Assembly: GCA_036676295.1 (NCBI GenBank)
Contig: JAKFDE010000035.1
Span: forward strand, 18,727-82,726
DNA from: Bacteroidia bacterium
GTDB taxonomy: Bacteria > Bacteroidota > Bacteroidia > B-17B0 > Aurantibacillaceae
DNA length: 64,000 nucleotides
Direction of reading: 5' to 3'
In this document: positions 37,681 through 53,556 of the stretch, in pieces
Numbering within the stretch: the first letter of the stretch is position 1
Layout: each line of letters starts with the position of its first letter
The notes under the pieces: model-generated
Database searches by the model: none
The model's input: only the letters and a program-made list of their open reading frames with translations
What the model was told of the DNA's origin: nothing
Made by a program: the position numbers and the translations under genes

Positions 37681-37713
37681 TTTGGAACTAATGATTTTTA
37701 TGCTTTAAATTTG
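37681..37713 (+). promoter_or_regulatory. Putative promoter of the SAM-riboswitch/met leader transcript
   Basis: TTTG (37681-37684), N21, TAAATTTG (37706-37713), ~30 nt upstream of the riboswitch P1 stem. Confidence 0.45.
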
Positions 37714-37745
37714 CAACGAATTATTACCCACCCATTGTGTGTATT

Positions 37746-37877
37746 AATTTATAAAGAAGTGGCGAGAGAATAGGCTCATTGACCCACTGGCAACCAACTC
37801 AAAGTACAGATGTTACAATCAGTATTGGAAAACAGGTGCCAATTCCTACTCCGATGAAAAGCGGAGGAAAATAAATT
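37746..37877 (+). promoter_or_regulatory. SAM-I (S-box) riboswitch aptamer
   Basis: P1 AAUUUAU (37746-52) pairs with AUAAAUU (37871-77). ...GUGGCGAGAGAAUAGGCUCAUUGACCCACUGGCAACC...GGUGCCAAUUCC UACUCCGAUGAAAAGCGGAGGA reproduces the conserved GGCAACC / GGUGCCAAUUCC junctions and the P4 hairpin (CUCCG/CGGAG). Lies upstream of metX-hom. Confidence 0.8.
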
Positions 37878-37889
37878 AAAAACAAAAAA

Positions 37890-38006
37890 ATGAAACACAC
37901 AAAATCAAAAACAAACAACAAATTCAGTGTTCAAGGTGTAACCTGTAATTCAATTTCTGCTTTCTTCATGATGGCCTGTATGTGTTGCTATTGCTGCATG
38001 TGCTAA
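37890..38006 (+). CDS. Cys/Met-rich short ORF (38 aa), candidate met/cys leader peptide
   Basis: ATG is 13 nt after the riboswitch P1. MKHTKSKTNNKFSVQGVTCNSISAFFMMACMCCYCCMC*; 10 of the last 12 codons are Met or Cys. Below the ORF-track size cutoff. Confidence 0.55.
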   Translation: MKHTKSKTNNKFSVQGVTCNSISAFFMMACMCCYCCMC

Positions 38007-38132
38007 GCTAGTTTTCCCTATTGATCTTATCGGAAAATTTAACCTTGGCAAATCCAAGGCAGGTTTGATGTATTCTTTATTCAAGAATTAGTCAACCTCA
38101 ATTTTTTCAATCATCACTTAATTCAAATCATC

Positions 38133-38369
38133 ATGAAAACAAATAGAAATTTTAATACAACAGATATAACTACAAATAACTTGATCGGAGAAATTGGTCA
38201 CCGTCATTTTTTAGAATTGCAAGCTAATTTTGGTTTTGCACAAAGAGGAGGCGTTAAATTCCCGTTAGGTAATACAAATCATAATAAACGCTTGGCCAGT
38301 GATATCAATATTTTGAATTCACAAGAGCATAAACAATTAATTTTTTCGGAAGTTATTTTTAGTAATTAA
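38133..38369 (+). CDS. Hypothetical 78 aa protein (orphan ORF upstream of metX)
   Basis: ATG-initiated ORF ending 7 nt before metX. No recognisable motif, so it may not be coding. Confidence 0.3.
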   Translation: MKTNRNFNTTDITTNNLIGEIGHRHFLELQANFGFAQRGGVKFPLGNTNHNKRLASDINILNSQEHKQLIFSEVIFSN

Positions 38370-38376
38370 ACAGATC

Positions 38377-39432
38377 ATGAGTCAATATAAATATCATTAT
38401 AAAAAAAGATTTCTTCTTGAGAGTGGTTTGTCATTACCTCATTTAGAAATTGCCTATCATACTTACGGTACATTAAATGCCGATAAGAGCAATGTGATTT
38501 GGGTGTGTCATGCGCTTACAGCTAATAGCGATGTGTTTGATTGGTGGAATGGTTTGTTTGGAGAAAATGATCTGTTTAATCCAAAGGAACATTTTATTGT
38601 ATGTGCTAATAATTTAGGTTCTTGTTATGGTACTACCGGTCCTTTTAGTATTAATCCGGATACAAAACAACGCTGGTACAGTTATTTCCCAAGTATTACC
38701 ATCAGAGATATTGCTAATGGGTTGCAATTGTTAAAACAACATCTAGGTATTGAAAAAATCCATACACTGATAGGTGGTTCGCAAGGAGGACAAATTGCAC
38801 AAGAGTGGGTATTACATGATAAGAGTGTGACTAGTAATTTAATATTGATCGCTACCAATGCACAACATTCTCCCTGGGGTATTGCTTTTAACGAATCGCA
38901 ACGCTTAGCTATTAAAGCAGATCGTACTTATTTTTCGAATTTGGATAATGGCGGAGAGAAAGGATTGCAAGCAGCGCGTAGTATTGCATTGTTGAGTTAT
39001 AGGAATTATCACACCTATAAAGAAACTCAAACCGATATTAAGCCACAGGTAGGCAATCATGCCGCAGCATCCTACCAACGTTATCAGGGAGAGAAATTGG
39101 TAAAACGTTTCAATGCCTATTCTTACGTGAGATTATCAGAAGCAATGGATTCTCATGATGTTATCCGTGACAGATGTTTTAGTGTAGAATCTGCTTTAAA
39201 TGAGATTACTTCTAATACACTGGTTATTGGAGTGACGACAGATGTGCTGTTTCCAATAGAAGAGCAAAAGCTGTTAGCTAAATGCATCAAAAGATCGGTT
39301 TATAAAGAAATTGAGTCTTTATATGGTCATGATGGATTTTTAATAGAAACAAAACAACTGTCAAAACACATCACTGAATTTTTTGAAACTAACAATAAAC
39401 AAATAAAACAACTAACCACTTTAAACAAATAA
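38377..39432 (+). CDS. metX: Homoserine O-acetyltransferase
   Basis: 351 aa. LESG..LPHLEIAYHTYGTLN...NVIWVCHALT N-terminus and GGSQGG nucleophile elbow. Confidence 0.9.
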   Translation: MSQYKYHYKKRFLLESGLSLPHLEIAYHTYGTLNADKSNVIWVCHALTANSDVFDWWNGLFGENDLFNPKEHFIVCANNLGSCYGTTGPFSINPDTKQRWYSYFPSITIRDIANGLQLLKQHLGIEKIHTLIGGSQGGQIAQEWVLHDKSVTSNLILIATNAQHSPWGIAFNESQRLAIKADRTYFSNLDNGGEKGLQAARSIALLSYRNYHTYKETQTDIKPQVGNHAAASYQRYQGEKLVKRFNAYSYVRLSEAMDSHDVIRDRCFSVESALNEITSNTLVIGVTTDVLFPIEEQKLLAKCIKRSVYKEIESLYGHDGFLIETKQLSKHITEFFETNNKQIKQLTTLNK

Positions 39433-39434
39433 AA

Positions 39435-40682
39435 ATGAGCAAAGAATTAAAAATAGGATTATTCGGATTTGGATGTGTAGGCCAGGGACTTTACCATGTG
39501 TTAAACAATAGTACCGGCTTTAAAGCTGATATTGTAAAGATAGGCGTTAAGAATAAAAATAAGGAACGAACGGTTGCTAAAGAACTGATCACTTTTGATA
39601 AAGGAGACATTCTTAACAACCCTGAAATAGACGTTGTGGTGGAATTAATTGATGACGCTACAGAAGCTTTTTTGATCGTGAGCGAAGCGCTGAAAAAAGG
39701 CAAACATGTTGTAACAGCTAATAAAAAATTATTGGCTCTACATTTACAGGAATTATTAGATCTGGCACAGCAAAGCAACGTATCCTTGTTGTATGAGGCT
39801 TCTGCTTGCGGAAGCATCCCTATCATCAGAACTTTAGAAGAATACTTTGATAACGAAGAGTTAGAAAAAGTGTCGGGTATTTTTAACGGTACCACTAATT
39901 ATATTTTAACAAAGACGATCAGCGAAAAACTATCTTATGCTGAAGCATTAAAACAAGCACAGGAAAAAGGTTTTGCCGAATCAGACCCAACTAATGATGT
40001 TGAAGGTTTTGATGCAAAGTTTAAAGCTGTTATTCTGGCATTGCACGCTTTTGGTGTCATTATTAAATCTGAGGATGTGTTAAATTTAGGTATTACCACA
40101 TTGCATGATAATGACATTAAATATGCTTCAGAAAAAGGGTATAAAATTAAGTTGACCCCAATTATTCAGCGTTTGGAAGATGATAAAGTAAGTGTGTTTG
40201 TCGCTCCAAGATTTATTAAAACCAGTAATCATTTGTTTAATGTAGATAATGAGTTTAATGGTGTGATCGTAGAAGGTAAGTTTTCGGGCGAACAATTTTT
40301 GCAAGGAAGAGGAGCGGGAAGTTACCCAACCGGAGCGGCTGTATTATCAGATATCTCAGCTTTATCGCATGGTTATAAATATGAGTTTAAAAAATATACT
40401 CAAAAACATAAACCACAGTTTACCAATGATGTATTGTTAGATGTTTATTTCAGATATAGCTCTGTTTTAGATCTAGAAAAGATAGAATTCACAGAGATCA
40501 AAGAAAAATATACAGGAAGTGATTACAATTACGTAGTTGGAAAGGTGAAGCTTCAAACCCTGATCAAAGAAAGAGGTTATATTTTGAGTAATAATTTATT
40601 CATTTCATTAGTAAATGATAGCGTTAGTTTAGATAAAACAGTAATTAAAACAGAACTTAAAAAAGAGAAACAGTTGGCTTAA
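39435..40682 (+). CDS. hom: Homoserine dehydrogenase
   Basis: 415 aa. GLFGFGCVGQG NAD-binding site, GSIPII, GIFNGTTNYILT and FAESDPTNDVEGFDAKFK motifs. Confidence 0.9.
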   Translation: MSKELKIGLFGFGCVGQGLYHVLNNSTGFKADIVKIGVKNKNKERTVAKELITFDKGDILNNPEIDVVVELIDDATEAFLIVSEALKKGKHVVTANKKLLALHLQELLDLAQQSNVSLLYEASACGSIPIIRTLEEYFDNEELEKVSGIFNGTTNYILTKTISEKLSYAEALKQAQEKGFAESDPTNDVEGFDAKFKAVILALHAFGVIIKSEDVLNLGITTLHDNDIKYASEKGYKIKLTPIIQRLEDDKVSVFVAPRFIKTSNHLFNVDNEFNGVIVEGKFSGEQFLQGRGAGSYPTGAAVLSDISALSHGYKYEFKKYTQKHKPQFTNDVLLDVYFRYSSVLDLEKIEFTEIKEKYTGSDYNYVVGKVKLQTLIKERGYILSNNLFISLVNDSVSLDKTVIKTELKKEKQLA

Positions 40683-40748
40683 TTATTTTGTTTTAATTCC
40701 TACTGAATTAGTAGTATATTTGTTACATAATTGAAAAACGAATTGATT

Positions 40749-41210
40749 ATGTTACAAAAGAAAACAAAATATGCGATAAAAGCCTTACTGGCACTGGCAA
40801 AACAATACAAGGATAATAAACCTATGAGGATCTCAGAAATAGCGGAGACCGAAGGGATTCCCAGAAAATTCCTAGAAGCGATTATGCTAGATTTAAAACA
40901 TAATGGCATAGTAGGGAGTAAAATGGGATCAACGGGCGGTTATTATTTAACCAAACACCCGGAGGAAATTATGCTAAGTAATGTGATCCGGTTAACCGGA
41001 GGGCCAATAGCACTGCTGCCTTGTGTGAGTTTGAATTTTTATGAGCCCTGTGTTGAATGTGTGAGTGAGGAGATCTGTGGATTAAGAAATGTGATATTGG
41101 AAGTGAGGGAAGCGAGTATTAAGATCCTTTCAAAGACAAGTTTGTTGGATATTTTATTAAGAGAAAAAAAGTTAGAAAAAAAAGTTAAACCATTGAAAAC
41201 AAAAGGATAG
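40749..41210 (+). CDS. Rrf2-family transcriptional regulator with four-Cys cluster
   Basis: MLQKKTKYAIKALLALA wHTH N-terminus. C-x8-C-x2-C-x5-C (LPCVSLNFYEPCVECVSEEICG), as in Fe-S-binding Rrf2 proteins. The ORF-track start at 40731 is TTG, so ATG at 40749 is preferred. Confidence 0.8.
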   Translation: MLQKKTKYAIKALLALAKQYKDNKPMRISEIAETEGIPRKFLEAIMLDLKHNGIVGSKMGSTGGYYLTKHPEEIMLSNVIRLTGGPIALLPCVSLNFYEPCVECVSEEICGLRNVILEVREASIKILSKTSLLDILLREKKLEKKVKPLKTKG

Positions 41211-41265
41211 AATGATTTAATTCCTATTACTCCTATAGGATATATGTAAAATAAATCATTTTTTG

Positions 41266-41297
41266 TTTGGATAATAAAAAAACAATGCATTATTTTG
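41266..41297 (+). promoter_or_regulatory. Putative promoter of the sulfate-assimilation leader transcript
   Basis: TTTG (41266-41269), N20, TTATTTTG (41290-41297; one mismatch to TAnnTTTG), 13 nt before the leader ATG. Confidence 0.45.
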
Positions 41298-41310
41298 CAC
41301 ACGAAAAAAA

Positions 41311-41385
41311 ATGAAAAAGACGCCATTACATAAATTATTTTCTACAAAGCACATGATGTATTGTTGGATGCAACGTTGTTGTTAA
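41311..41385 (+). CDS. Met/Cys-rich leader peptide (24 aa) of the AKR-sir operon
   Basis: MKKTPLHKLFSTKHMMYCWMQRCC*; 6 of the last 10 codons are Met/Cys. An antiterminator/terminator pair follows directly. Confidence 0.65.
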   Translation: MKKTPLHKLFSTKHMMYCWMQRCC

Positions 41386-41412
41386 CGGAAGGATATTGTG
41401 TACAATATAAAA

Positions 41413-41441
41413 CCCCTCCGTTTGCACGGTGGGGTTTTTTT
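41413..41441 (+). terminator. Attenuator terminator upstream of the AKR-sir operon
   Basis: CCCCTCCG (41413-20), loop TTTGCA, CGGTGGGG (41427-34), then T7 (41435-41), 37 nt before the AKR ATG. The upstream CGGAAGG (41386-92) can instead pair with CCCTCCG (41414-20), enclosing an ATATT/AATAT mini-hairpin. That pairing is the candidate antiterminator. Confidence 0.8.
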
Positions 41442-41477
41442 ATAATCAAAAATTAGAAAATAGTTAAAACAGAAAAA

Positions 41478-42356
41478 ATGGAAAAAATTTATATCAGCGA
41501 AACAGGACCAGAAGTGTCCGCAGCCATCTACGGTTTTTGGAGATGGAACACTGTAGCTTTAGCAACAGAAAAAAAAGTTGAAGACATTATCAATTATAAT
41601 TTGGAATTAGGTGTAAACACCTTTGATCATAGCAATAATTACAGTAGTGGAAAAATCGAAGAATTATTTGGTAAGGTCATTTCAAAAAGTAACATTAACC
41701 GTGAGGATATTATTATTTCTACGAAATCAGGGATCAGAAACTTTTCGAACAAAAGTTCTAAAGGTGTTTATTACGATCTAAGCCCTGAACACATTACCAA
41801 AAGTATTGAAGAATCATTACAGCATTTAAAAACAGATTACATTGATATCTTTTTGTTAGAACATTACGATCCTTTGTATCAGGTTGAGGAAACTGCTTCG
41901 GCATTAATTAAATTATTACGCAGTGGCAAAGTAAAGCACATCGGTGTTTCTAACTTTAATGTCTTTCAACACCGTTTATTAGCCTCTCATTTAAATCAGC
42001 CAATTGTTACCAATCATATCGAATTGAATTTGTTGCAAAGTAGTGCTATTGATGATGGACGTTTGGATTTTATCAAAGAGCAATACAGTAAACCAATGGC
42101 CTTTGCTCCTTTAGCCGGTGGTCGTATTTTAAATGGTAAAGACAAGAAAGCGATCTCTGTTAGAAAAGCATTAACTGAAATTGCTAAAAATCATTCGATC
42201 AATGTAGAGCAAGCGGCGGTTGCATGGTTGTATAAACTAGGTGCTTTGCCAATTATTGGCAGTACGGATAAAAAACGTATTAAGAATGCGGCGAGCGCTT
42301 ACTCGGTTAATTTAAGTAAAGAAGAATGGTATCAATTGTATAACGCTGCAAAATAA
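41478..42356 (+). CDS. Aldo/keto reductase family oxidoreductase
   Basis: 292 aa. AKR (YdhF-like) pattern FDHSNNY, STKSG, DIFLLEH and HIGVSNF. Confidence 0.8.
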   Translation: MEKIYISETGPEVSAAIYGFWRWNTVALATEKKVEDIINYNLELGVNTFDHSNNYSSGKIEELFGKVISKSNINREDIIISTKSGIRNFSNKSSKGVYYDLSPEHITKSIEESLQHLKTDYIDIFLLEHYDPLYQVEETASALIKLLRSGKVKHIGVSNFNVFQHRLLASHLNQPIVTNHIELNLLQSSAIDDGRLDFIKEQYSKPMAFAPLAGGRILNGKDKKAISVRKALTEIAKNHSINVEQAAVAWLYKLGALPIIGSTDKKRIKNAASAYSVNLSKEEWYQLYNAAK

Positions 42357-42361: not shown

Positions 42362-44488
42362 ATGCAAAGTTTTAGATCAGAATTAGAATTAGTCAATCAC
42401 TCAGGCAAAGCCTTGGTAGAAAAAGATATCATTGATCTGGATAAAAAGATCCGTGAATTTCGTGAAGGAAAAATTCATGAAGAAAAATTCAGAAGTCTTC
42501 GTTTAGCTCGTGGCGTTTATGGGCAAAGACAACAAGGTGTTCAGATGATCCGTATTAAATTACCATTTGGTAAAGTGAGTACTCAACAATTGTTGCGTAT
42601 TGCAGATATTAGTGATGAATATTCTAATGGAAATTTGCATTTAACCACTCGTCAGGATATTCAAATCCATCATGTGAGTTTGGATAGAACACCTGAGTTA
42701 TGGGCTAAGTTGGAACAAGAGGATATTACTTTACGTGAAGCTTGTGGTAATACGGTTCGTAATATAACGGCTTCTGCCGAAGCAGGTATCGACCCACATG
42801 AAGTATTTGATGTATCGCCTTATGCACATGCATTGTTTACTTATTTTTTGCGTAAACCATTTTGTCAGGAAATGGGAAGAAAGATCAAGATGGCTTTTTC
42901 TAATAATGATCAGGACACTGCTTTTACTTATATCCATGATTTGGGATTTATTCCAAAAATAAAAAATGGCGAAAGAGGATTTAAAGTTTTAGTGGGAGGT
43001 GGTTTAGGCGCTCAGCCATTTTTGGCGCAAACTGCTTTTGAATTTTTACATGAAGATAAACTAATTCCTTTTGTGGAAGCAACACTCAGAGTGTTTGATA
43101 GACATGGGGAAAGAGCCAGCAGACATAAAGCTCGCATCAAATATCTGATCAATAAAATTGGAATAGAAGAGTTTTTGAAATTGGTGAAAGAAGAAGAAAA
43201 AGCGTTGTTGGTAAAAGAATTTGAAATTGATACACGTTTAGAAAATGGTATAACCACTCTAAAAACAGTTTTACCAAAGGACTTGCCTGTTGTTAATGAA
43301 GATGATTATAAATTGTGGTTACAGACAAACACGTTTGAACAAAAACAAGCAGGGTTGTTTGGTGTGTATGTAAAAGTACAATTAGGAAATATTTCATCTG
43401 ATAAAACACGCAAGTTCGTAAAAGCGATTGCTAAGTACGCAGATACTGAAGATATACGTATTACGATCAATCAGGGCTTTTTATTAAAAAATATTGCTAA
43501 AGAAGAATTGCCATTTCTTTACAATGAATTGAATCGAATTAAGTTAGCTACACCTGGGTTTGATTCGGTAGCGGATATAACGGCTTGTCCTGGAACTGAT
43601 ACCTGTAATTTAGCTATTTCAAACAGCACCCATATTTCGGTGGCTTTAGAAAATGTGATCACGGAAGAATTCCCTGAATTGGTTCATAATCATGATATTA
43701 AAATCAAGATCAGTGGTTGTATGAATTCTTGCGGGCAACATGGGTTAGCTCAAATTGGCTTTCATGGCAGTTCTTTTAAAGTTGGTACAACTGTAGTTCC
43801 TGCTTTGCAAGTGTTATTGGGTGGTGGAACAGTAGGTAATGGTAAAGGTAGAATTTCGGAGAAAGTAATTAAAGTGGCCAGTAAACGTGCTCCGGATGTG
43901 TTAAGAAAATTATTTAATGATTTTGAAGCGAATGCGGTTGAAGGAGAATATTTTAATTCGTACTACGATAAAAAAGGGAAAGATTATTTCTATCAGTTAT
44001 TAAAACCAATAGGAGATAATAGTTCTTTAACTCCTGAAGAGTTAATTGATTGGGGACAGGAAGAGAAATTTGCGACAGCAATTGGAGTAGGAGAGTGTGC
44101 CGGTGTGGTGATCGATTTGGTAGCGACCTTGTTTTTTGAAGCGGAAGAAAAATTAGCCTGGAGTGCAGAAGCCTTTGAAAATAAACAATGGGGTGACAGT
44201 ATTTATTATTCTTATGCCGCTTTTATAAATGCTGCTAAGGGATTATTGTTAGATAAGCAAGTGCATGTGAATACACAACATGGAGTAATTAATGATTTTG
44301 ATAAAACATTTGTAGAATCAGGATTGATAAAATTAAAAGGTGAGTTTAAAGAATTGATCTTACAAATTAATAAACATGAGCCATCTATAGAGTTTGCTGA
44401 ATACTATTTCAACCAAGCAGAGCAGTTTTTAAATACCGTTAAAGTTTATAGGAATACTAATGTCACCCTGAGCGAAGTTGAAAGTTAA
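42362..44488 (+). CDS. sir: Assimilatory sulfite reductase (ferredoxin-type nitrite/sulfite reductase hemoprotein) with ~140 aa C-terminal extension
   Basis: 708 aa. Siroheme/4Fe-4S Cys motifs (ACPGTDTCNLA, SGCMNSCGQH) and duplicated NIR_SIR ferredoxin-like halves. Extra helical C-terminal domain. The last codons (NVTLSEVES) lie in a REP half-unit. Confidence 0.88.
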   Translation: MQSFRSELELVNHSGKALVEKDIIDLDKKIREFREGKIHEEKFRSLRLARGVYGQRQQGVQMIRIKLPFGKVSTQQLLRIADISDEYSNGNLHLTTRQDIQIHHVSLDRTPELWAKLEQEDITLREACGNTVRNITASAEAGIDPHEVFDVSPYAHALFTYFLRKPFCQEMGRKIKMAFSNNDQDTAFTYIHDLGFIPKIKNGERGFKVLVGGGLGAQPFLAQTAFEFLHEDKLIPFVEATLRVFDRHGERASRHKARIKYLINKIGIEEFLKLVKEEEKALLVKEFEIDTRLENGITTLKTVLPKDLPVVNEDDYKLWLQTNTFEQKQAGLFGVYVKVQLGNISSDKTRKFVKAIAKYADTEDIRITINQGFLLKNIAKEELPFLYNELNRIKLATPGFDSVADITACPGTDTCNLAISNSTHISVALENVITEEFPELVHNHDIKIKISGCMNSCGQHGLAQIGFHGSSFKVGTTVVPALQVLLGGGTVGNGKGRISEKVIKVASKRAPDVLRKLFNDFEANAVEGEYFNSYYDKKGKDYFYQLLKPIGDNSSLTPEELIDWGQEEKFATAIGVGECAGVVIDLVATLFFEAEEKLAWSAEAFENKQWGDSIYYSYAAFINAAKGLLLDKQVHVNTQHGVINDFDKTFVESGLIKLKGEFKELILQINKHEPSIEFAEYYFNQAEQFLNTVKVYRNTNVTLSEVES
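44462..44484. repeat. REP half-unit embedded in the 3' end of sir
   Basis: gtcaccctgagcgaagttgaaag closely matches gtcaccctgagcggagtcgaagg at 50468-50490. Confidence 0.6.
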
Positions 44489-44497: not shown

Positions 44498-44569
44498 ATG
44501 AAAAAAAGTAAATATATCTATATCAAGTTTGACAGTTGTTGTTGCTGTTGTGCTATCATAATATTTTAA
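44498..44569 (+). CDS. Penta-cysteine short ORF (23 aa), candidate cysteine-sensing leader peptide
   Basis: ATG is 9 nt after the sir stop. MKKSKYIYIKFDSCCCCCAIIIF*, with five consecutive Cys codons tgt tgt tgc tgt tgt at 44537-44551. Confidence 0.6.
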   Translation: MKKSKYIYIKFDSCCCCCAIIIF

Positions 44570-44618
44570 CTGTATGTGATGTTTCGGCTAATACAGTTGT
44601 ACTTAAAACCGAAACACC
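44570..44618 (+). promoter_or_regulatory. Mutually exclusive hairpins downstream of the poly-Cys sORF
   Basis: Hairpin A is CTGTAT (44570-75) with ATACAG (44591-96). Hairpin B is GTGATGTTTCGG (44576-87) with CCGAAACACC (44609-18). B's 5' arm lies in A's loop. No U-tract follows. The cobA ATG is at 44644. Confidence 0.4.
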
Positions 44619-44643: not shown

Positions 44644-45432
44644 ATGAGTAAAAAAATATATCCAAAATTAACCTTAGTAGGCGCGGGTCCTGGTGATCCT
44701 GATTTGATTACTGTTAAAGGAATTAAAGCCTTAAATACAGCAGATGTCATTTTATATGATGCTTTAGTAAATCCTGAAATTTTAAAACACGCTTCGTCTG
44801 AAGCCTTAACCATTTATGTAGGGAAACGTAATCACGAACATATTTATACTCAAGAACAAATAAATACCTTGATTGTTAATTACGCATACACTCACGGACA
44901 TGTAGTTCGTTTAAAAGGCGGAGACTCATTTGTCTTTGGTCGTGGTCAGGAAGAGATCAATTACATACAATCCTTTAATATTGAAACAGCTGTTGTCCCC
45001 GGTATATCCAGTTCTATTGGTGTTCCTGCATTGAGTGGTATTCCTGTTACACACCGTGGTGTGAGTGAAAGCTTTTGGGTAATTACAGGAACAACCAGAA
45101 CTAACCAGTTATCGGATGATGTGAAATTGGCAGCTGAAACCAATGCAACCGTTGTTATTTTAATGGGAATTTCAAAATTGAAAGAGATCGTAGAAATTTA
45201 TAAGAAAGAAAGAAAGTATGATACTGCTATTGCTTTGATCCAAAATGGTTCTTTAGAAACTGAAAAAATTGCTTTAGGAACGATTGATACAATTTTAAAA
45301 ACGGCTAAAAAAGAAAAGATTGAAGCACCTGCTGTTATTGTGATTGGTGACGTTGTGAAGCAACATATTAAATTTCCAGTAGAATTCTCAAATCTTAATT
45401 CATTATTAACTAAGATAGGAGGAGTGTCATGA
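44644..45432 (+). CDS. cobA: Uroporphyrinogen-III C-methyltransferase
   Basis: 262 aa. LVGAGPGDPDLITVKG SAM-binding N-terminus and RLKGGDSFVFGRG motif. Confidence 0.9.
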   Translation: MSKKIYPKLTLVGAGPGDPDLITVKGIKALNTADVILYDALVNPEILKHASSEALTIYVGKRNHEHIYTQEQINTLIVNYAYTHGHVVRLKGGDSFVFGRGQEEINYIQSFNIETAVVPGISSSIGVPALSGIPVTHRGVSESFWVITGTTRTNQLSDDVKLAAETNATVVILMGISKLKEIVEIYKKERKYDTAIALIQNGSLETEKIALGTIDTILKTAKKEKIEAPAVIVIGDVVKQHIKFPVEFSNLNSLLTKIGGVS

Positions 45433-47620: not shown

Positions 47621-47624
47621 AATT

Positions 47625-47662
47625 CCCCTCTCCTCAAAGGAGAGGGGCCAGGGGTGAGGTCG
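47625..47662. repeat. REP-like G/C-rich palindromic element (CCCCTC..GAGGGG family)
   Basis: CCCCTCTCC-tcaaa-GGAGAGGGG ccaggggtgaggtcg, immediately after the sirC::TSUP stop. A likely terminator-like hairpin. Confidence 0.7.
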
Positions 47663-47731
47663 TTATGAGTAACCGCACTTTTGTTCAAGCAAAAAGAAAA
47701 GATAAATAATAATAAAATAAAAAAAACAAAT

Positions 47732-48742
47732 ATGATAACAACAGACATAGCTATTGTAGGCGCAGGACCGGTAGCATTATTTGCCATTTTTGAAGCAGGG
47801 CTTTTGAAAATGAGATGTCATTTAATTGATTACTTGCCACAAGTTGGCGGACAATTATCAGAGATCTATCCTAAGAAACCAATTTATGATATTCCCGGGT
47901 ATCCTACAGTGTTAGCGCAGGAATTGATCGATAATTTAGTGAAGCAAGCTGAGCCGTTTGGCCCAACTTATACCTTAGGTGAGCGTATTGAATCATTGGA
48001 AAAAATTGGCGACCGTGATTTTATTTTAACCACCAATATGGGTACAAAGATCAATGCAAGTGCTGTAGTAATTGCAGGTGGATTGGGCTGTTTTGAACCT
48101 CGTAAACCGGAAGTAGAAGGCTTACATCGTTTTGAAAATGGGAAAGGAATTAGTTACATGATACTGGATCCTGAAACATATCGTGATAAAAAATTAGTAA
48201 TTGCCGGTGGTGGAGATAGTGCTTTGGATTGGAGTATTTTTTTAGCAGATATTGCTAAAGAAGTGACCTTGGTTCATAGAAGTGAATCGTTCCGTGGAGC
48301 ACCTGATAGCGTGAATAAAGTAATGACATTAGCACAGCAGGGAAAAATTAATTTATTATTGAATTCTAATTTATCTAACGTGGGTGGTAATGGTGTTTTA
48401 AAAAGTGTGGGTGTTGTAAATATTAAAACAAAAGAAGAACAAATTATTGAAGCCGATAATTTAATTCCGTTGTTCGGTTTAAGTCCTAAGTTAGGGCCAA
48501 TTGAAGGCTGGGGATTAAATATTGATAAAAATGCCATTGAAGTAAATACGGATGATTATTCAACCAACATCGAAGGGGTGTATGCCATTGGTGATATCAA
48601 TACGTATAAAAATAAATTAAAACTGATCTTGTGTGGTTTTCATGAGGCGGCATTAATGAGTCATAGCGCTTATAAATACATTAATCCGGGCGTTAAGTAT
48701 ACTATGAAATATACAACGGTGAATGGTGTTAATTCTTTTTAG
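47732..48742 (+). CDS. Ferredoxin-NADP+ reductase, thioredoxin-reductase-like (YumC type)
   Basis: IAIVGAGPVALFA FAD site, LPQVGGQLSEIYPKKPIYDIPGYP, GGGDSALDW and AIGDI motifs match TrxR-type FNR. The ORF-track start at 47681 is TTG, so ATG at 47732 is preferred. Confidence 0.8.
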   Translation: MITTDIAIVGAGPVALFAIFEAGLLKMRCHLIDYLPQVGGQLSEIYPKKPIYDIPGYPTVLAQELIDNLVKQAEPFGPTYTLGERIESLEKIGDRDFILTTNMGTKINASAVVIAGGLGCFEPRKPEVEGLHRFENGKGISYMILDPETYRDKKLVIAGGGDSALDWSIFLADIAKEVTLVHRSESFRGAPDSVNKVMTLAQQGKINLLLNSNLSNVGGNGVLKSVGVVNIKTKEEQIIEADNLIPLFGLSPKLGPIEGWGLNIDKNAIEVNTDDYSTNIEGVYAIGDINTYKNKLKLILCGFHEAALMSHSAYKYINPGVKYTMKYTTVNGVNSF

Positions 48743-48744
48743 TG

Positions 48745-48786
48745 GTCACTTCGAGTACCGACGAAGGAGGTGTATCGAGAAGTGAT
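48745..48786. repeat. REP-like palindromic element (GTCAC..GAG..TCGAG family)
   Basis: gtcacttcgagtaccgacgaaggaggtgtatcgagaagtgat, between the FNR and osmC genes. Confidence 0.6.
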
Positions 48787-48843
48787 TGAAATTAAAATAG
48801 ATTAATAGAATAAAGTATATTTAAATAAATAAATTTTAAGAAT

Positions 48844-49257
48844 ATGAAAATTAATTTAAAACGACTGGATAATGATTTTAACATCGAAGCTACCAATGAA
48901 GATGGAAATACTTTATTAATGGATGGTTCAGCCGAGATCGGTGGACATGGAAAAGGAATGCGTCCAATGCAACTATTGTTAGCTGCTGTTGGAGGATGCA
49001 GTGCTATTGATGTGATCCTGATCTTGAAAAAACAAAAACAAGTCATCGACTCTTTTGAGATCGAAGTGGATGGTGAGCGAGAGAAGATCGAAGATTATTC
49101 TTTGTTCAGAGATATTGTTCTGCATTTTAAAATCAAAGGACAAGTGGATTATGATAAAGCAGAGCGAGCTATTAAATTATCTATGGATAAATATTGTTCT
49201 GTTTCTAAAACATTGGAATCAACCGCAAAGATCACTTATAAATTAACGATTAACTAG
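48844..49257 (+). CDS. OsmC-family protein
   Basis: 137 aa. GMRPMQLLLAAVGGCSAIDV and KYCSVSKTL contain the two conserved OsmC cysteines. Confidence 0.8.
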   Translation: MKINLKRLDNDFNIEATNEDGNTLLMDGSAEIGGHGKGMRPMQLLLAAVGGCSAIDVILILKKQKQVIDSFEIEVDGEREKIEDYSLFRDIVLHFKIKGQVDYDKAERAIKLSMDKYCSVSKTLESTAKITYKLTIN

Positions 49258-49262
49258 AACCA

Positions 49263-50432
49263 ATGAAAGATAAACATTTTGAAACCCAGGCCATTCGTGC
49301 TCAATTTGAGCGTAGCGATAATAACGAACATTCTGTTCCATTATATTTAACATCTAGTTTTGTATTTGATACAGCGGAAGAAATGCGCGCGGCTTTTAAC
49401 GAAGAGTCGGATGATTTTATTTATTCGCGCTACATCAATCCAAACACGAATGAGTTCATTAACAAAGTATGTTTACTGGAAGGGGCTGAATCTGGTTTGG
49501 CAACAGCTTCAGGTATGGCCGCTATTTTTACTACGTTCATGACGATCTTAAAATCCGGTGACCATGTGGTGTCCTGTTCTTCGGTATTTGGCGCAACACA
49601 TGCCGTCTTTACCAAGTATTTTCCTAAATGGAATATTTCTTATTCTTATTTTAATACAGGTAATGTTGAAGAGATCGAAAAACTGATCAAGCCCGAAACT
49701 AAATTTATTTATTTAGAAACACCTACTAATCCTGCTATCGAATTAATTGATCTGGAATTAGTTGCTAAAGTGGCTAAGAAACATAATATCCTATTGATCG
49801 TAGATAATTGTTTTGCAACACCTTATTTACAACAACCAATTAAGTTTGGTGCTGATCTGGTAATTCACTCAGCTACTAAATACATGGATGGACAAGGTCG
49901 TGTGTTGGGTGGAATTGTAGTTGGTAAGAAAGAGTTGATACACGATATTTATTTATTTGGCAGATTAACAGGACCGTCTATGAGTCCGTTTAATGCCTGG
50001 GTGTTAAGTAAGAGTTTAGAAACCTTGGCATTACGTATGGACAGGCATTGTGAGAACGCATTACATGTAGCACAAAAATTAGAGGGACATACCAAATTAG
50101 AAAATGTGTCTTATCCGTTTTTGCCTTCTCATCCGCATCATGCTATTGCTAAAAAACAAATGAAAGCAGGTGGAGGGATCATTACTATTACGGTGAAAGG
50201 TGGTTACGAAGCAGCTAAAACATTTTTGGATAAATTACAAATGATAAAAATTTCTCCAAACTTAGGTGATGCACGAAGTATTGTTACACATCCTGCTTCT
50301 TCAACACATTGTAAATTAAGTGAGGAAGAACGATTAAAGGTTGGTATCACGCCGGGATTAATTCGCGTATCTATTGGATTAGAAAATAAAGAGGATATTT
50401 TAAATGATATTTTACAAGCATTGAAAGATTAA
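49263..50432 (+). CDS. Cys/Met-metabolism PLP enzyme (cystathionine gamma-synthase / O-acylhomoserine sulfhydrylase family)
   Basis: 389 aa. Trans-sulfuration family pattern including HSATKYMDGQG (PLP-lysine). Confidence 0.85.
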   Translation: MKDKHFETQAIRAQFERSDNNEHSVPLYLTSSFVFDTAEEMRAAFNEESDDFIYSRYINPNTNEFINKVCLLEGAESGLATASGMAAIFTTFMTILKSGDHVVSCSSVFGATHAVFTKYFPKWNISYSYFNTGNVEEIEKLIKPETKFIYLETPTNPAIELIDLELVAKVAKKHNILLIVDNCFATPYLQQPIKFGADLVIHSATKYMDGQGRVLGGIVVGKKELIHDIYLFGRLTGPSMSPFNAWVLSKSLETLALRMDRHCENALHVAQKLEGHTKLENVSYPFLPSHPHHAIAKKQMKAGGGIITITVKGGYEAAKTFLDKLQMIKISPNLGDARSIVTHPASSTHCKLSEEERLKVGITPGLIRVSIGLENKEDILNDILQALKD

Positions 50433-50435
50433 AGA

Positions 50436-50490
50436 GTTCTCGACTTCGCTCGAACTGACATTATTGTCACCCTGAGCGGAGTCGAAGGGC
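50436..50490. repeat. REP-like palindromic element, two half-units
   Basis: gttctcgacttcgctcgaactgac-attatt-gtcaccctgagcggagtcgaagggc, between the PLP enzyme gene and cysH. Confidence 0.7.
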
Positions 50491-50500
50491 GTAAACAAAC

Positions 50501-51199
50501 ATGAAAGAATTAAACAAAATACAAGAACTACTAAAAAACAAATCACCCGAAGCCTCACTCGCTTCACTGGCGGAGCTATTACCTGGAGAGATCGTGTTTT
50601 CTACGAGCTTAGGATATGAAGATCAGGTGATCACACATCAGATCTTTGCAAATAATTTGAATATAGAAATATTCACGTTAGATACGGGAAGGTTGTTTTC
50701 TGAAACTTATTCGGTATGGAACAGTACGTTGGATCGTTACAAAAAACAGATCAAAGTATATTATCCAAACACAGAGGCAGTAGAAAAGTTGGTTTCAGAA
50801 AAAGGTCCATCTTGTTTTTATGAGTCGGTAGATAATAGAAAAGAATGTTGCCATATTCGTAAAGTAGAGCCATTGAAGCGTGCGTTGAAAGGAAAGAAAA
50901 TATGGATCACCGGTATTCGTGCCGAGCAATCAGGTAACAGAAGTGATATGCCTCAGCTAGAATGGGATGAGGCGAATCAAATTATCAAGTTTCATCCGAT
51001 ATTGAATTGGACATTTGAAGAGGTGAAAAGTTTTATCAATAAGCACAATATTCCTTATAACCCTTTGCATGATAAAGGTTTTGTAAGCATAGGCTGCGCT
51101 CCTTGTACCAGAGCTATTCGCGAAGGTGAAGATTTTAGAGCAGGTCGCTGGTGGTGGGAAGATAAAAGTAAAAAAGAATGCGGGTTGCACAGTAAGTAG
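50501..51199 (+). CDS. cysH: Assimilatory adenylyl-sulfate (APS)/PAPS reductase, Fe-S (APS) type
   Basis: 232 aa. C-terminal KKECGLH. Extra Cys pairs KECCHIRKVEPL and SIGCAPCT are characteristic of 4Fe-4S APS reductases. Confidence 0.88.
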   Translation: MKELNKIQELLKNKSPEASLASLAELLPGEIVFSTSLGYEDQVITHQIFANNLNIEIFTLDTGRLFSETYSVWNSTLDRYKKQIKVYYPNTEAVEKLVSEKGPSCFYESVDNRKECCHIRKVEPLKRALKGKKIWITGIRAEQSGNRSDMPQLEWDEANQIIKFHPILNWTFEEVKSFINKHNIPYNPLHDKGFVSIGCAPCTRAIREGEDFRAGRWWWEDKSKKECGLHSK

Positions 51200-51248
51200 T
51201 TTGCAGTAGCGTAAGAAGTCTAAAAAATAACATTAAAATTAAAGTATT

Positions 51249-51302
51249 GTCAGTTCGAGCCTATCGAGAACTAGACACACATCTCGACAAGCTCGATGTG
51301 AC
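51249..51302. repeat. REP-like palindromic element
   Basis: gtcagttcgagcctatcgagaa-ctagacacaca-tctcgacaagctcgatgtgac, between cysH and cysD. The right arm differs by 1 nt from the trpG-trpD copy. Confidence 0.8.
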
Positions 51303-51317
51303 AAAAAAATAAACAAA

Positions 51318-52229
51318 ATGAACAAATACTATTTAAATTATTTAGATCAATTAGAATCCGAAGCGATTCATATCTTAAGAGAAGTTGCAGGGCAATTCGA
51401 ACGTCCTGCCTTATTATTCAGTGGAGGAAAAGATTCGATCACCTTGGTACGTTTGGCAGAAAAAGCTTTTCGTCCGGGCAAGTTTCCTTTCCCTTTAGTG
51501 CATATTGATACGGGTCATAACTTTCCGGAAGCAATTGCCTACCGCGATAATTTAGCTAAGCAGTTAGATGAAAAATTAATTGTACGCTATGTAGCCGATA
51601 CTATTAAAGAAAAAAAGTTAACCGAAACCAAAGGTAAATTTGCAAGTCGTAATGCTTTGCAAACGTATACGTTGTTGGATGTCATCGAAGAATTCAAATT
51701 TGATGTATGTATTGGTGGAGCTCGCAGAGATGAAGAAAAAGCGAGAGCCAAAGAGCGTATTTTTTCGGTAAGAGATGAGTTTGGACAATGGGATCCTAAA
51801 CGTCAACGTCCCGAATTATGGAATACCTACAATGGTAAAATTCACAAAGGAGAAAACGTGAGAGCGTTCCCTATCAGTAACTGGACAGAGTTAGATGTTT
51901 GGAATTATATCAAAAAAGAAAACATCGACTTGCCAAGTATTTATTTTTCACATGAGCGAGAGTGTGTGGTAACACAAGATAGTCAGTTGGTAGCAATGTC
52001 GGATTTTGTGCAACTTGAAGCAAGTGATGTGATCGTAAAAAAACAAGTACGTTACAGAACCGTTGGTGATATGACTTGTACGGCAGCTGTAGAATCAGAA
52101 GCATCGCATATTGATGATATCATTCGCGAAATTTCAGCATCACGTATGAGCGAACGTGGAGAAACCCGCATTGATGATCAGGTATCAGAAGCAGCGATGG
52201 AAGACAGAAAAAAAGGAGGATATTTTTAA
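51318..52229 (+). CDS. cysD: Sulfate adenylyltransferase subunit 2
   Basis: 303 aa. LFSGGKDS PP-loop and typical CysD C-terminus (...RKKGGYF). Confidence 0.95.
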   Translation: MNKYYLNYLDQLESEAIHILREVAGQFERPALLFSGGKDSITLVRLAEKAFRPGKFPFPLVHIDTGHNFPEAIAYRDNLAKQLDEKLIVRYVADTIKEKKLTETKGKFASRNALQTYTLLDVIEEFKFDVCIGGARRDEEKARAKERIFSVRDEFGQWDPKRQRPELWNTYNGKIHKGENVRAFPISNWTELDVWNYIKKENIDLPSIYFSHERECVVTQDSQLVAMSDFVQLEASDVIVKKQVRYRTVGDMTCTAAVESEASHIDDIIREISASRMSERGETRIDDQVSEAAMEDRKKGGYF

Positions 52230-52244
52230 TAAGAACAGACGAAG

Positions 52245-52291
52245 GATAAATGATGAAGGATTAAAGAAGATCCTGTCATGAATCATTTATC
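52245..52291 (+). promoter_or_regulatory. Long hairpin in the cysD-cysN spacer
   Basis: GATAAATGAT (52245-54) pairs with ATCATTTATC (52282-91), with an inner GGAT/ATCC pair. Function unknown. Confidence 0.35.
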
Positions 52292-52314
52292 TTTTATCAT
52301 TAATCAAATAAGAA

Positions 52315-53556
52315 ATGGATATTTTAAGATTTATAACAGCAGGAAGTGTAGACGATGGTAAAAGTACATTGATCGGAAGACTATTGTACGATAGCAAATC
52401 AATATTGGTTGATCAGTTAGCAGCTATCGAAAAACAAAGTAAGAACAAAGAGAATGGTGAAATTGATTTGGCAATTTTAACCGATGGTTTGCGTGCCGAA
52501 CGTGAGCAAGGTATTACTATTGATGTAGCCTATAAATATTTCTCTACACCAAACCGTAAATTCATTATTGCGGATGCTCCAGGGCATATTCAATACACAC
52601 GTAACATGGTAACAGGTGCGAGTAATGCTGATCTGGCGGTTATTTTAGTAGATGCCCGTAAAGGAGTTATTGAACAAACACGTCGTCATTCTATCATTAC
52701 ATCATTGCTTGGTATTAAGCATGTGGTGGTAGCCATTAATAAAATGGACCTAGTTGAGTTTAGCGAAGTTCGTTATAATGAGATCGTGAACGATTACAAA
52801 AATATCCAGAAGCAATTAGGCTTATCTGATATTGTATTTATTCCTATTAGTGCTTTGATCGGTGATAATATTGTAGATGCTTCTTCAAACATGAATTGGT
52901 ATAAAGGAAAACCCTTATTGGATATTTTAGAAAAGGTTGAATTGAATAACGATATCAATTTAACGGATGTGCGTTTTCCGGTGCAGTATGTGATTCGCCC
53001 GCAAACAGACGAACTGCACGATTACAGAGGCTACGCCGGTAAATTATCAAGTGGTATTATTAAAAAAGGTGATAAAGTGGTGATAGCTCCATCAGGAATT
53101 TCATCAACCGTTAAAGCCATTGAAGTAGGAGGGAAGGAAGTGGAAGAAGCATTTGCTCCGCAAAGTATTGTGTTACATTTAGCGGATGATGTGGATGTAA
53201 GTCGCGGAGATATGATCGTAAAACACGATTCACAGCCAACAGTTACTCAGGATCTGGAAGTACTCTTATGTTGGATGGATAGCAAACAATTGGAGATTGG
53301 TTCTAAGTATTTAATTCAGCACAATACCAAACAAGTGCGTTGTGTGGTTAAAGAGATCGATTACAAGCTGAATGTAAATACCCTTGAAAAAGAAACCAAC
53401 ATTGAGTCAGCTCAGTTAAATGATGTGTGCCGTGTGGTTTTAAAAACCGCTGTACCTTTAGCTATTGATAAATACAAAACTATCAGAAACAATGGAAGTG
53501 CTATTTTAATTGATGAAACGAGCTGTGTCACGGTTGGCGCCTGTATCATTCAATAA
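52315..53556 (+). CDS. cysN: Sulfate adenylyltransferase subunit 1 (GTPase), no APS-kinase domain
   Basis: 413 aa. GSVDDGKST G1, DAPGH G3 and NKMD G4 motifs. Ends without a CysC extension. Confidence 0.93.
   Translation: MDILRFITAGSVDDGKSTLIGRLLYDSKSILVDQLAAIEKQSKNKENGEIDLAILTDGLRAEREQGITIDVAYKYFSTPNRKFIIADAPGHIQYTRNMVTGASNADLAVILVDARKGVIEQTRRHSIITSLLGIKHVVVAINKMDLVEFSEVRYNEIVNDYKNIQKQLGLSDIVFIPISALIGDNIVDASSNMNWYKGKPLLDILEKVELNNDINLTDVRFPVQYVIRPQTDELHDYRGYAGKLSSGIIKKGDKVVIAPSGISSTVKAIEVGGKEVEEAFAPQSIVLHLADDVDVSRGDMIVKHDSQPTVTQDLEVLLCWMDSKQLEIGSKYLIQHNTKQVRCVVKEIDYKLNVNTLEKETNIESAQLNDVCRVVLKTAVPLAIDKYKTIRNNGSAILIDETSCVTVGACIIQ

Follow-up and report, generated by a model that had tools for sequence, protein, structure and literature searches.

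Cysteine- and methionine-rich short ORFs as probable leader peptides in a sulfur gene cluster of a Bacteroidia bacterium

Introduction

A cluster of 15 sulfur genes occupies positions 37.7 to 53.6 kb of the 64,000-nt stretch of DNA analysed in the current study (the window), which derives from a Bacteroidia bacterium (assembly GCA_036676295.1, contig JAKFDE010000035.1). The left half of this cluster contains three short open reading frames (sORF1–3) that are rich in cysteine (Cys) and methionine (Met) codons, the first of which lies just behind a SAM-I riboswitch. The locus raises the question of whether these sORFs are leader peptides, by which the progress of a ribosome reports the supply of sulfur amino acids, or whether they have some other role, or none. 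An initial annotation, made from the sequence alone, had proposed the former. The three sORFs, the riboswitch, a gene for an Rrf2-family regulator and the sulfur cluster itself were all recovered where that annotation had placed them, and the proposal that ribosome-mediated attenuation is here extended to sulfur amino acids is strongly supported by comparative evidence, namely the enrichment of such sORFs ahead of sulfur genes and their conservation.

The sORFs are probably ribosome-stalling sensors of Cys and Met supply, with sORF2 acting as a transcription attenuator, sORF1 being gated by S-adenosylmethionine (SAM) and sORF3 working from inside an operon. Each has an A-rich, Lys-rich start that would favour initiation and, within a few codons of its stop, a run of Met codons, Cys codons or both. 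Under a shortage of charged Cys-tRNA or Met-tRNA, a ribosome would stall on this run, and its position would decide which fold the downstream RNA adopts.

Enrichment and conservation of the sORFs

The six frames of the window hold 570 ATG-initiated ORFs of 12–60 codons. When these are ordered by the number of Cys plus Met codons per 10-codon window, sORF1, sORF2 and sORF3 rank first, second and third (scores of 8, 6 and 5), and the next best ORF scores 4. All three are intergenic and lie on the coding strand (Table 1). In 80 related loci (see below), poly-Cys sORFs, defined as having at least three Cys in six codons, are present in 43 of 265 regions upstream of sulfur genes and in 11 of 534 other regions (odds ratio 9.2, p = 5e-13), which agrees with the expectation that such sORFs are rare elsewhere. 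Several of the 11 regions in the latter class actually precede an unlabelled first gene of a sir operon.

Related loci, 80 in number, were gathered by alignment of the sulfite reductase Sir, and L-numbers denote these together with the loci found by way of ORF78, a conserved hypothetical gene between sORF1 and metX. By Sir, the nearest relatives are metagenome-assembled genomes (MAGs) of uncultured Bacteroidia or Bacteroidota, at about 80% identity, followed by Pedobacter, Mucilaginibacter, Pontibacter, Chitinophaga and Emticicia at 60–65%. Phylogenetic conservation was apparent, with Cys/Met sORFs found in unclassified Bacteroidia, Pedobacter, Pontibacter, Botryobacter and Mucilaginibacter. 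Carriers that are in culture include Pedobacter suwonensis DSM 18130 (L040), P. jeongneungensis (L037), Pontibacter toksunensis KCTC 23984 (L020), Botryobacter ruber (L024) and Mucilaginibacter aquatilis (L067). Across homologs the Cys/Met run is kept, and the N-terminal part is free in both sequence and length. Pontibacter and Botryobacter carry a second poly-Cys sORF (e.g. ...SACCCCCCCMQR) ahead of a divergent cysH-cysD-cysN, and their sir-proximal sORF is situated 250–400 nt from sir; in L023, the only one of these loci checked for a terminator, it is followed by a weak hairpin (-9.7 kcal/mol) and a T-run.

These sORFs are missed by current gene callers. An exact look-up of seven of the sORF peptides returned none in a collection of 15 billion predicted proteins, and a second contig with an identical Sir has no gene call at the positions of sORF2 and sORF3.

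sORF2, a probable attenuator ahead of AKR-sir

The most secure of the three cases is sORF2, which has the appearance of a classical trp-type attenuator. The attenuator that had been annotated behind it is present, as a hairpin followed by seven T (Table 1), and 23 of 23 leaders of sORF2 homologs, in a range that extends from close MAGs as far as Pedobacter and Mucilaginibacter, have a hairpin and five or more T at 20–47 nt past the stop codon. In the window, only about 35 nt separate the terminator from the start of the aldo-keto reductase gene (AKR), which is too short for a promoter, and AKR-sir must therefore be transcribed through the terminator. The sequence AACGGAAGG, which overlaps the sORF2 stop codon, is complementary to the 5' arm of the terminator, CCCCUCCGUU. 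A ribosome that reaches the stop codon would cover AACGGAAGG, so that the terminator would form and transcription would halt before AKR-sir. If the ribosome were instead stalled on the codons for MMYCWM, AACGGAAGG would be free to pair with the terminator 5' arm, and readthrough would follow.

Promoter-like signals predict a 5' leader of about 15 nt for sORF2, and TAATTTG boxes equivalent to its -7 signal are found in relatives. The signal at nt 41291–41298, also seen upstream of sORF2 in L001, L004, L082 and others, resembles the 'SM5' motif (TAnnTTGY) of Flavobacterium psychrophilum (PMC9723704), and may point to a different sigma factor.

sORF1 and the SAM-I riboswitch

The presence of a SAM-I riboswitch at the head of the cluster was confirmed, with RF00162 scoring well above its gathering score (Table 1), and in the rest of the window no other Rfam family exceeds its gathering score. 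The aptamer was also detected in all 15 related leaders scanned (57.9–71.2 bits), where its end is separated from the AUG of sORF1 by 12–14 nt, the same as in the window. The promoter-like box TAAATTTG upstream of the riboswitch fits the Bacteroidota -7 consensus, TAnnTTTG (PMC9723704). No terminator was found downstream of the aptamer in the window.

Metagenomes were scanned for sORF1 homologs by ORF78 alignment. Sequences of the form MKHTxSK...F[FL]MMAC(C)MCCCCxMC were found in 19 of 19 metagenome ORF78 loci with enough upstream sequence, and in four genome loci as well. Between the two conserved ends is a variable middle part of 18–32 codons, in which the reading frame remains open in all 17 of 17 loci, compared to about 20% of shuffles; frame +1 has 2–5 stops.

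Two pairings appear to connect the riboswitch, sORF1 and ORF78. The first of these, termed P0, joins a UGUGUGU sequence directly 5' of the aptamer P1 helix to codons 2–4 of sORF1. P0 is present in the minimum-energy fold, in which the start codon of sORF1 is located in an asymmetric loop between P1 and P0. In 18 sequences, 97.6% of cells are paired, and in 15 of the 18 the His-Thr codons of sORF1 read CAC-ACA, without change even at the third positions. The second is a long-range helix (LR) between the Phe-Met-Met codons of sORF1 and the start region of ORF78. Against 241 background start regions, this duplex, 8–13 bp in length, ranks in the top 1–6% at most of the loci for which the parsing was correct (3 of 19 were mis-parsed, the wrong ORF78 start having been picked). 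There are three sequence classes of the helix, the second of which pairs UUUUUAAUGAU with AUCAUUAAAAA, just upstream of the start codon. In L098 both arms are changed, UUCAUAAU::AUUAUGAA, by a compensatory G>A / C>U exchange. The minimum-energy folds obtained for the window, L001 and L003 all contain the helix. Three hairpins (H1–H3) occur between the two arms. By eye, the leader alignment (A4) shows variation in H1 (CC/GG, CG/CG and CA/UG) and, in the outer pair of H2, from C-G to U-A; RNAalifold on the same alignment, in which MAFFT sets H1–H3 in different registers, returned a weak consensus of -3.4 kcal/mol.

The arrangement suggests that sORF1 is a two-input switch, i.e. a case of SAM-gated translational attenuation. 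As the AUG of sORF1 is placed 12–14 nt after P1, between P1 and the putative P0, the riboswitch would gate translation of the sORF directly. Bound SAM would close P1 and P0, trap the start codon between the two helices and leave sORF1 untranslated, in which case the Phe-Met-Met codons (UUCAUGAUG) would stay paired with the ORF78 start region (CAUCAUGAA), and the closely spaced genes ORF78-metX-hom would be off. At low SAM, sORF1 would be translated, and a ribosome stalled on the Met/Cys run would melt the long-range helix and open the ORF78 start. Rho-dependent polarity on the A/C-rich, untranslated sORF1 leader may add to this control.

sORF3 and the RNA element at its stop codon

According to the initial annotation, a short ORF is present at every major transcriptional junction of the left half. 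sORF3 begins 9 nt past the sir stop codon, with no promoter or terminator there, and is therefore an element inside an operon and not at a transcriptional junction. In L007, L009 and L012 the two overlap, the start of sORF3 and the preceding stop codon sharing the sequence ATGA. Homologs of sORF3 have a run of 3–7 Cys codons, followed by 3–5 further codons and the stop. In the window and in L001, L004, L007–L010, L012, L081 and L082, the motif K-Y-I-(Y/H)-I-K-(Y/F)-(D/E) is found right before the Cys run, with synonymous codon changes.

A hairpin, S1, starts 0–3 nt from the sORF3 stop codon (window, nt 44568–44615; L001, nt 12165–12222; L002, L003, L009, L014 and L081). Its arms are unlike between loci and yet complementary in seven of seven (each p <= 0.009, combined 1e-11). 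An invariant UUUCGG in the S1 loop is able to pair with a downstream CCGAAA (S2) across a short A-rich linker, a topology that is compatible with an H-type pseudoknot. When the sORF3 region, alone among the three leaders, was compared with Rfam at a relaxed threshold (E <= 10), only noise was returned (snoRNA and miRNA models, E > 4), and none of the matches were to SAM-II, SAM-V, preQ1 or other pseudoknot families. Matches to TTTCGG...CCGAAA elsewhere in the loci are inside the cysD coding sequence or in unrelated DNA, and are not relevant.

Other loci appear to be built differently downstream of the sORF. Significant pairing of the Cys codons with the cobA start region was seen in about half of the loci (L004, L007, L009, L012, L014 and L082), and in L012 sORF3 is followed by a true terminator. 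Since the output platform differs between loci, the sensor part of sORF3 would be the conserved one, with an output module that changes. As a Cys sensor within an operon, sORF3 is the least secure of the three. It would be translated by ribosomes coming off sir. In the clade of the window, ribosome position would decide whether folding of S1, and with it the pseudoknot-compatible structure, is possible. In other clades, the cobA start region would be paired with the Cys codons, or a terminator would follow.

A more specific reading, which is possible but which we hold only tentatively, is that the locus contains a composite sensor particular to Bacteroidota, in which there is no Shine-Dalgarno sequence that could be hidden. 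The SAM-I riboswitch would gate a Met/Cys leader whose AUG is enclosed by P1 and P0, and the regulatory codons of that leader would pair with the start of the next gene, such that the SAM, Met-tRNA and Cys-tRNA signals are combined on one RNA. The pseudoknot-type RNA at the sORF3 stop codon would in turn relay the Cys signal to cobA and beyond.

Points against the leader-peptide interpretation and alternative explanations

A number of points weigh against leader peptides as the explanation of the three sORFs, of which the most general is that every functional step is inferred from sequence. Many related genomes, including most of Mucilaginibacter, Emticicia and Chitinophaga, have the Rrf2-sir arrangement and no detectable poly-Cys sORF, so that the system is patchy. 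In the window, no intrinsic terminator was found after sORF1 or sORF3; with the only terminator being that of sORF2, these two must work by other means. There is little formal covariation support, as the related leaders are close to each other and the helices mostly invariant, and for the sORF1 leader, where P0 and most of the long-range helix do not vary, the formal count is zero. The long-range helix also rests on start contexts of the AUCAUG type, which are common in these genomes. For sORF2, the best complement to the terminator 5' arm (taken from the last hairpin only) at or near the stop codon was compared with shuffles in the 23 leaders, giving a mean z of -0.91 and a combined p of about 1e-4, which is optimistic because the leaders are related; individually, the complementarity is significant in only 4 of the 23. 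Furthermore, the last two Cys codons of sORF2 in the window are so near the stop codon that stalling at them would leave the antiterminator strand covered by the ribosome. At sORF3, neither S1 nor S2 hides the cobA start. Pairing of the Cys codons with that start, considered as an explanation for the window, was rejected (background fraction 0.35), and it fails also in L081, L002 and L003. Lastly, the conserved YIxIKY(D/E) motif may indicate a role for the nascent sORF3 peptide itself, e.g. as an arrest-enhancing sequence.

Conservation of residues outside the run (MKHTxSK and F[FL]MMAC in sORF1, YIxIKY(D/E) with synonymous codon variation in sORF3) is also what would be expected if the sORFs encoded functional Cys-rich micropeptides, whether metal- or sulfur-binding, lipid-modified, or similar to ribosomally synthesised and post-translationally modified peptides, that are co-expressed with the cluster and do not regulate it. 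This is very improbable. Neither the sequence nor the length of the middle of sORF1 is fixed, and the MKHT and FMM codons of this sORF are accounted for by RNA pairing (P0 and the long-range helix, respectively). Terminators or structured RNA start exactly at the stop codons, no gene for a modifying enzyme or an exporter accompanies the sORFs, and the peptides, which are absent from the 15 billion proteins, end in hydrophobic Cys runs without a recognisable fold. The reverse possibility, that the U/G-rich tracts (UGUUGUUGCUGUUG) function as RNA elements in which translation plays no part, either as a site for a protein or small RNA or as one strand of a structure, would make the frames incidental and leave control to the riboswitch and Rrf2 alone. 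Such tracts, being of the form (UGU)n, are complementary to the A/C-rich start regions typical of Bacteroidota, significantly so for the cobA start in about half of the sORF3 loci, and the Cys/Met region of sORF1 is conserved at the nucleotide level, including third codon positions. Nevertheless, in every case an AUG in an A-rich context opens the frame in which the tract is read, and a stop closes this frame 0–5 codons after the tract; the sORF1 frame is open far more often than expected (see above), and an indel inside the run is of exactly 3 nt. Besides Cys codons, sORF1 and sORF2 contain Met codons, which in many sORF3 homologs come after the Cys run, and the succession of run, 3–5 codons, stop and structure has the geometry of a ribosome footprint. 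Control by untranslated RNA elements is thus considered unlikely.

A third alternative concerns only the manner in which sORF1 and sORF3 act. C-rich, G-poor RNA that is left bare by a lack of translation or by early release could be exposed to Rho, with termination or polarity as the result, as in the tna operon, and a stalled ribosome would block this. The lack of an intrinsic terminator after either sORF in the window would be explained, the first 40 nt of sORF1 are A/C-rich, almost free of G and similar to a Rho utilisation (rut) site, and Rho has been proposed to act at actinobacterial cys leaders (PMC1262725). Yet sequence is an unreliable guide to Rho loading sites, Rho would have little room in the 74-nt spacer downstream of sORF3, and the conserved long-range helix with its compensatory change would be left unexplained. 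As the mechanism of both sORFs, Rho-dependent termination has little likelihood, although it could act together with hiding of the start codon. Leader peptides that sense Cys and Met supply are taken as the best explanation.

Gene content of the cluster and the Rrf2 regulator

The coordinates of all features are given in Table 1. The window has a G+C content of about 34%, and all genes from 37.7 to 53.6 kb are on the forward strand. Pfam and NCBIfam agree with the gene order claimed for the cluster: ORF78, MetX, Hom, Rrf2, AKR, Sir, CobA, DUF2490, a SirC::TauE fusion, a flavoprotein of the thioredoxin reductase (TrxR) type, OsmC, a pyridoxal phosphate (PLP) enzyme, CysH, CysD and CysN. This order recurs in L001, L003, L005 and L011. 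ORF78 encodes 71–79 residues with the motifs AQRGG and RLxSDxNxLxSxE, and is situated between the sORF1 leader and metX in all 24 loci; it is annotated only as hypothetical and has no match in Pfam, NCBIfam or PDB. CysH is of the adenosine 5'-phosphosulfate (APS) type, as annotated (TIGR02055, 255.7 against a cut-off of 235.3), and both the CC and CxxC motifs are there. The flavoprotein, previously labelled 'FNR', is plausibly a ferredoxin-NADP reductase. Assignment of the PLP enzyme to trans-sulfuration was not supported, as the best-fitting NCBIfam model is O-succinylhomoserine sulfhydrylase (510.9 bits, slightly under the cut-off of 522), which would make it an enzyme of direct sulfhydrylation.

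Sir has a C-terminal extension of about 130 residues, with a weak match to the HEPN domain (residues about 590–676, E = 2e-5). Sir proteins of this Bacteroidota family keep the extension, and 'HEPN domain-containing protein' is the name given to some of the database entries. The DUF2490 gene, between cobA and sirC::TauE, encodes a predicted outer-membrane-like protein, and its position is kept in L003 and L014. The right half of the cluster was likewise searched for Cys sORFs and yielded no more than GC-rich repeat hairpins. These are of the repetitive extragenic palindromic (REP) or miniature inverted-repeat transposable element (MITE) type (e.g. CCCCTCTCCTCAAAGGAGAGGGG and GTCACCCTGAGCGGAGTCGAAGGG) and occur in intergenic gaps (nt 47625–47660, 50436–50490 and 51247–51305). 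In relatives, such repeats are inserted between sORF3 and cobA (L004, L007, L008, L009, L012, L015 and L082), and the final codons of sir in the window (nt 44461–44488) seem to have taken in such a repeat.

The regulator between hom and sORF2 had been described as an Fe-S-type Rrf2 protein. Its link to Rrf2 is sound (PF02082, Table 1), and the only NCBIfam cut-off it passes is that of the superfamily model TIGR00738 (101.3 against 73.3). The Fe-S type was a guess. Four cysteines, in the arrangement C-X9-C-X2-C-X5-C, are invariant in 36 homologs, and the protein probably senses through them; this spacing is, we presume, not the pattern of IscR or NsrR. All equivalog models failed: CymR (66.6 against 195), RirA (62.3 against 193), IscR (56.2 against 207.6) and NsrR (41.8 against 182). 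The Rrf2 gene is directly upstream of sir in many genomes, even where no sORF was found.

Two candidate operators were identified. The one upstream of the sORF2 promoter is the only exact TCCTA-N9-TAGGA in the window and is kept in relatives. The other has one mismatch to this form and overlaps the -7 box of the Rrf2 promoter; in L081, L082, L001, L005, L008 and L009 the palindrome is kept as CCTACTAAATTAGTAG beside the -7 box, which reads TATATTTG, or TATATTTA in two of them. Searches for palindromes with other spacings gave chance matches only, and the form is taken to be TCCTA-N9-TAGGA. As either a repressor or an activator, Rrf2 would add protein-level control at these two sites, i.e. at its own promoter and upstream of the sORF2 promoter.

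Table 1. Coordinates of features in the 64,000-nt window and, where an L-number is given, in related loci
Feature	Position (nt)	Strand	Sequence or remarks
trpE	25261–26685	-	trpEGDCFBA operon
trp WW leader sORF	26780–26839	-	MRNILVNKFWWPSCIHMNS; upstream of trpE
Promoter-like signals, riboswitch/sORF1 transcript	37683–37685; 37706–37713	+	TTG; TAAATTTG; as read from the sequence
P0, 5' arm	37736–37742	+	UGUGUGU; directly 5' of aptamer P1 helix
SAM-I aptamer	37746–37877	+	RF00162, 66.1 bits; gathering score 44.4
sORF1	37890–38006	+	38-codon putative leader peptide MKHTKSKTNNKFSVQGVTCNSISAFFMMACMCCYCCMC
P0, 3' arm	37895–37901	+	ACACACA; sORF1 codons 2–4, Lys-His-Thr
LR helix, 5' arm	37965–37973	+	UUCAUGAUG; Phe-Met-Met codons of sORF1
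sORF1 regulatory codons	37968–38003	+	MMACMCCYCCMC; Met/Cys run
Hairpin H1	38012–38037	+	UUUUCC/GGAAAA; between sORF1 and ORF78
Hairpin H2	38043–38059	+	CCUUGG/CCAAGG; between sORF1 and ORF78
Hairpin H3	38072–38088	+	AUUCUU/AAGAAU; between sORF1 and ORF78
LR helix, 3' arm	38129–38137	+	CAUCAUGAA; includes ORF78 start codon; 9 bp with 5' arm
ORF78	38133–38369	+	conserved hypothetical
metX	38377–39432	+	Pfam/NCBIfam
hom	39435–40682	+	homoserine dehydrogenase; Pfam/NCBIfam
Candidate Rrf2 operator	40698–40716	+	TCCTACTGAATTAGTAGTA; one mismatch to TCCTA-N9-TAGGA; overlaps Rrf2 -7 box
Rrf2 promoter -7 box	40715–40722	+	TATATTTG; as read from the sequence
Rrf2-family regulator	40749–41210	+	PF02082, 114 bits
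Candidate Rrf2 operator	41222–41240	+	TCCTATTACTCCTATAGGA; upstream of sORF2 promoter
Promoter-like signals, sORF2 transcript	41267–41269; 41291–41297	+	TTG; TATTTTG; as read from the sequence
sORF2	41311–41385	+	24-codon putative leader peptide MKKTPLHKLFSTKHMMYCWMQRCC, ends MMYCWMQRCC
Putative antiterminator strand	41384–41392	+	AACGGAAGG; overlaps sORF2 stop codon
Small hairpin after sORF2	41393–41408	+	between antiterminator strand and terminator
Intrinsic terminator	41413–41434; 41435–41441	+	hairpin CCCCUCCGUUUGCACGGUGGGG; seven U
AKR	41478–42356	+	aldo-keto reductase; Pfam/NCBIfam
sir	42362–44488	+	ferredoxin-type sulfite reductase; Pfam/NCBIfam
sORF3	44498–44569	+	23-codon intra-operon sORF MKKSKYIYIKFDSCCCCCAIIIF; five-Cys-codon run at 44537–44551
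S1	44568–44575 / 44591–44598	+	AACUGUAU / AUACAGUU; hairpin at sORF3 stop codon
S2	44581–44587 / 44609–44615	+	GUUUCGG / CCGAAAC; pairs S1 loop with downstream
cobA to cysN	44644–53556	+	cobA, DUF2490, sirC::TauE, TrxR-type flavoprotein, OsmC, O-acylhomoserine sulfhydrylase-like PLP enzyme, APS reductase cysH, cysD, cysN; Pfam/NCBIfam
DUF2490 gene	45429–46157	+	
Second poly-Cys sORF, L019	20557–20682	-	Pontibacter/Botryobacter
Second poly-Cys sORF, L020	20113–20229	-	Pontibacter/Botryobacter
Second poly-Cys sORF, L023	19774–19887	-	Pontibacter/Botryobacter
Second poly-Cys sORF, L024	19260–19382	-	Pontibacter/Botryobacter

Comparison with known systems

The initial annotation regarded the arrangement as a previously undescribed regulatory system. 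For a wholly undescribed system this is too strong, because Cys leader sORFs are known in Actinobacteria. They were predicted in 2005 ahead of actinobacterial cys operons, without terminators (PMC1262725), and the polycysteine leaderless sORFs of mycobacteria have been shown to attenuate translation in response to cysteine (Canestrari et al., bioRxiv 10.1101/834739). What stands is narrower: full-text literature searches for Bacteroidota turned up neither Cys/Met leader peptides nor a leader peptide fed by a riboswitch, and no report of a SAM riboswitch feeding a leader peptide was found in the literature searched. The transcriptome paper on Flavobacterium psychrophilum (PMC9723704) speaks of leader-peptide attenuation upstream of amino-acid operons in general terms only.

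The actinobacterial and mycobacterial leaders are likewise short ORFs that end in Cys runs directly ahead of cysteine or sulfate-assimilation genes, with stalling as the presumed cysteine sensor. At least one of the mycobacterial attenuators acts on translation without a terminator, as is proposed here for sORF1 and the helix over the ORF78 start; sORF2 differs in having one. The sORFs of the window belong to a different phylum, show no sequence homology to these leaders and have Met codons mixed in. None of them are leaderless, since sORF1 comes after a 132-nt riboswitch, sORF3 is intra-operon and sORF2 has a short predicted leader. The canonical intrinsic terminator after sORF2 and the SAM riboswitch ahead of sORF1 set them apart from the actinobacterial leaders also.

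Leader-peptide attenuation is known in Bacteroidota for trp (Bacteroid-trp, RF01692), and a trp operon with a WW leader was said to occur in the same window. Such a leader sORF was found upstream of trpE (Table 1). Its scores are below the gathering scores of both Bacteroid-trp (38.4 against 49, E = 0.004) and Trp_leader (32.1 against 41), and it would therefore be missed by automatic Rfam annotation. With the classical attenuators (trp, his, leu, thr, phe, ilv and Bacteroid-trp), sORF2 shares a promoter, tandem regulatory codons, a putative antiterminator strand at the stop codon and a terminator before the first gene. It departs from them in that the regulatory codons are Cys and Met, and sORF1 and sORF3 in that they lack a terminator.

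In the mgtA leader of Salmonella and E. coli, a Mg2+ riboswitch is combined with a proline-codon sORF, mgtL. This is the nearest analogue of the sORF1 arrangement, being likewise a single mRNA leader with both a metabolite- or ion-sensing RNA and a sORF that reports amino-acid supply. In sORF1, by comparison, the aptamer is SAM-I, and both signals would report on the same pathway (SAM, Met and Cys). In the ermC and cat leaders, a stalled ribosome opens a helix in which the start region of the following gene is hidden, and this translational attenuation serves as the model for the long-range helix between sORF1 and ORF78. Stalling at sORF1 would result from a shortage of charged tRNA and not from an antibiotic, and what is hidden would be a start codon in an A-rich context, with no Shine-Dalgarno sequence. 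Among regulators, the window Rrf2 shares with CymR, IscR, NsrR and RirA a winged-helix domain, a gene located beside those for sulfur assimilation and AT-rich palindromes as candidate operators, also at its own promoter, and differs in falling far below every equivalog cut-off, the best being that of CymR.

Significance

To our knowledge, no RNA-level cysteine sensor (riboswitch) is known. Charging of Cys-tRNA is the main route by which cysteine supply can be read on an mRNA, and we know of its documentation so far only for mycobacteria. If sORF1 functions as proposed, a riboswitch and a leader peptide would here be connected in series, of which natural examples are rare, and the arrangement bears on how riboswitches and attenuators may work in bacteria where initiation is not led by Shine-Dalgarno sequences. 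Three elements, namely S1/S2, the attenuator at sORF2 and the leader of sORF1, are candidate new families for Rfam. Should the interpretation be correct, the occurrence of Cys/Met leader peptides across several orders of Bacteroidota would represent a solution that has arisen independently and is widespread, and would offer a first handle on sulfur regulation in a phylum where it is almost unstudied.

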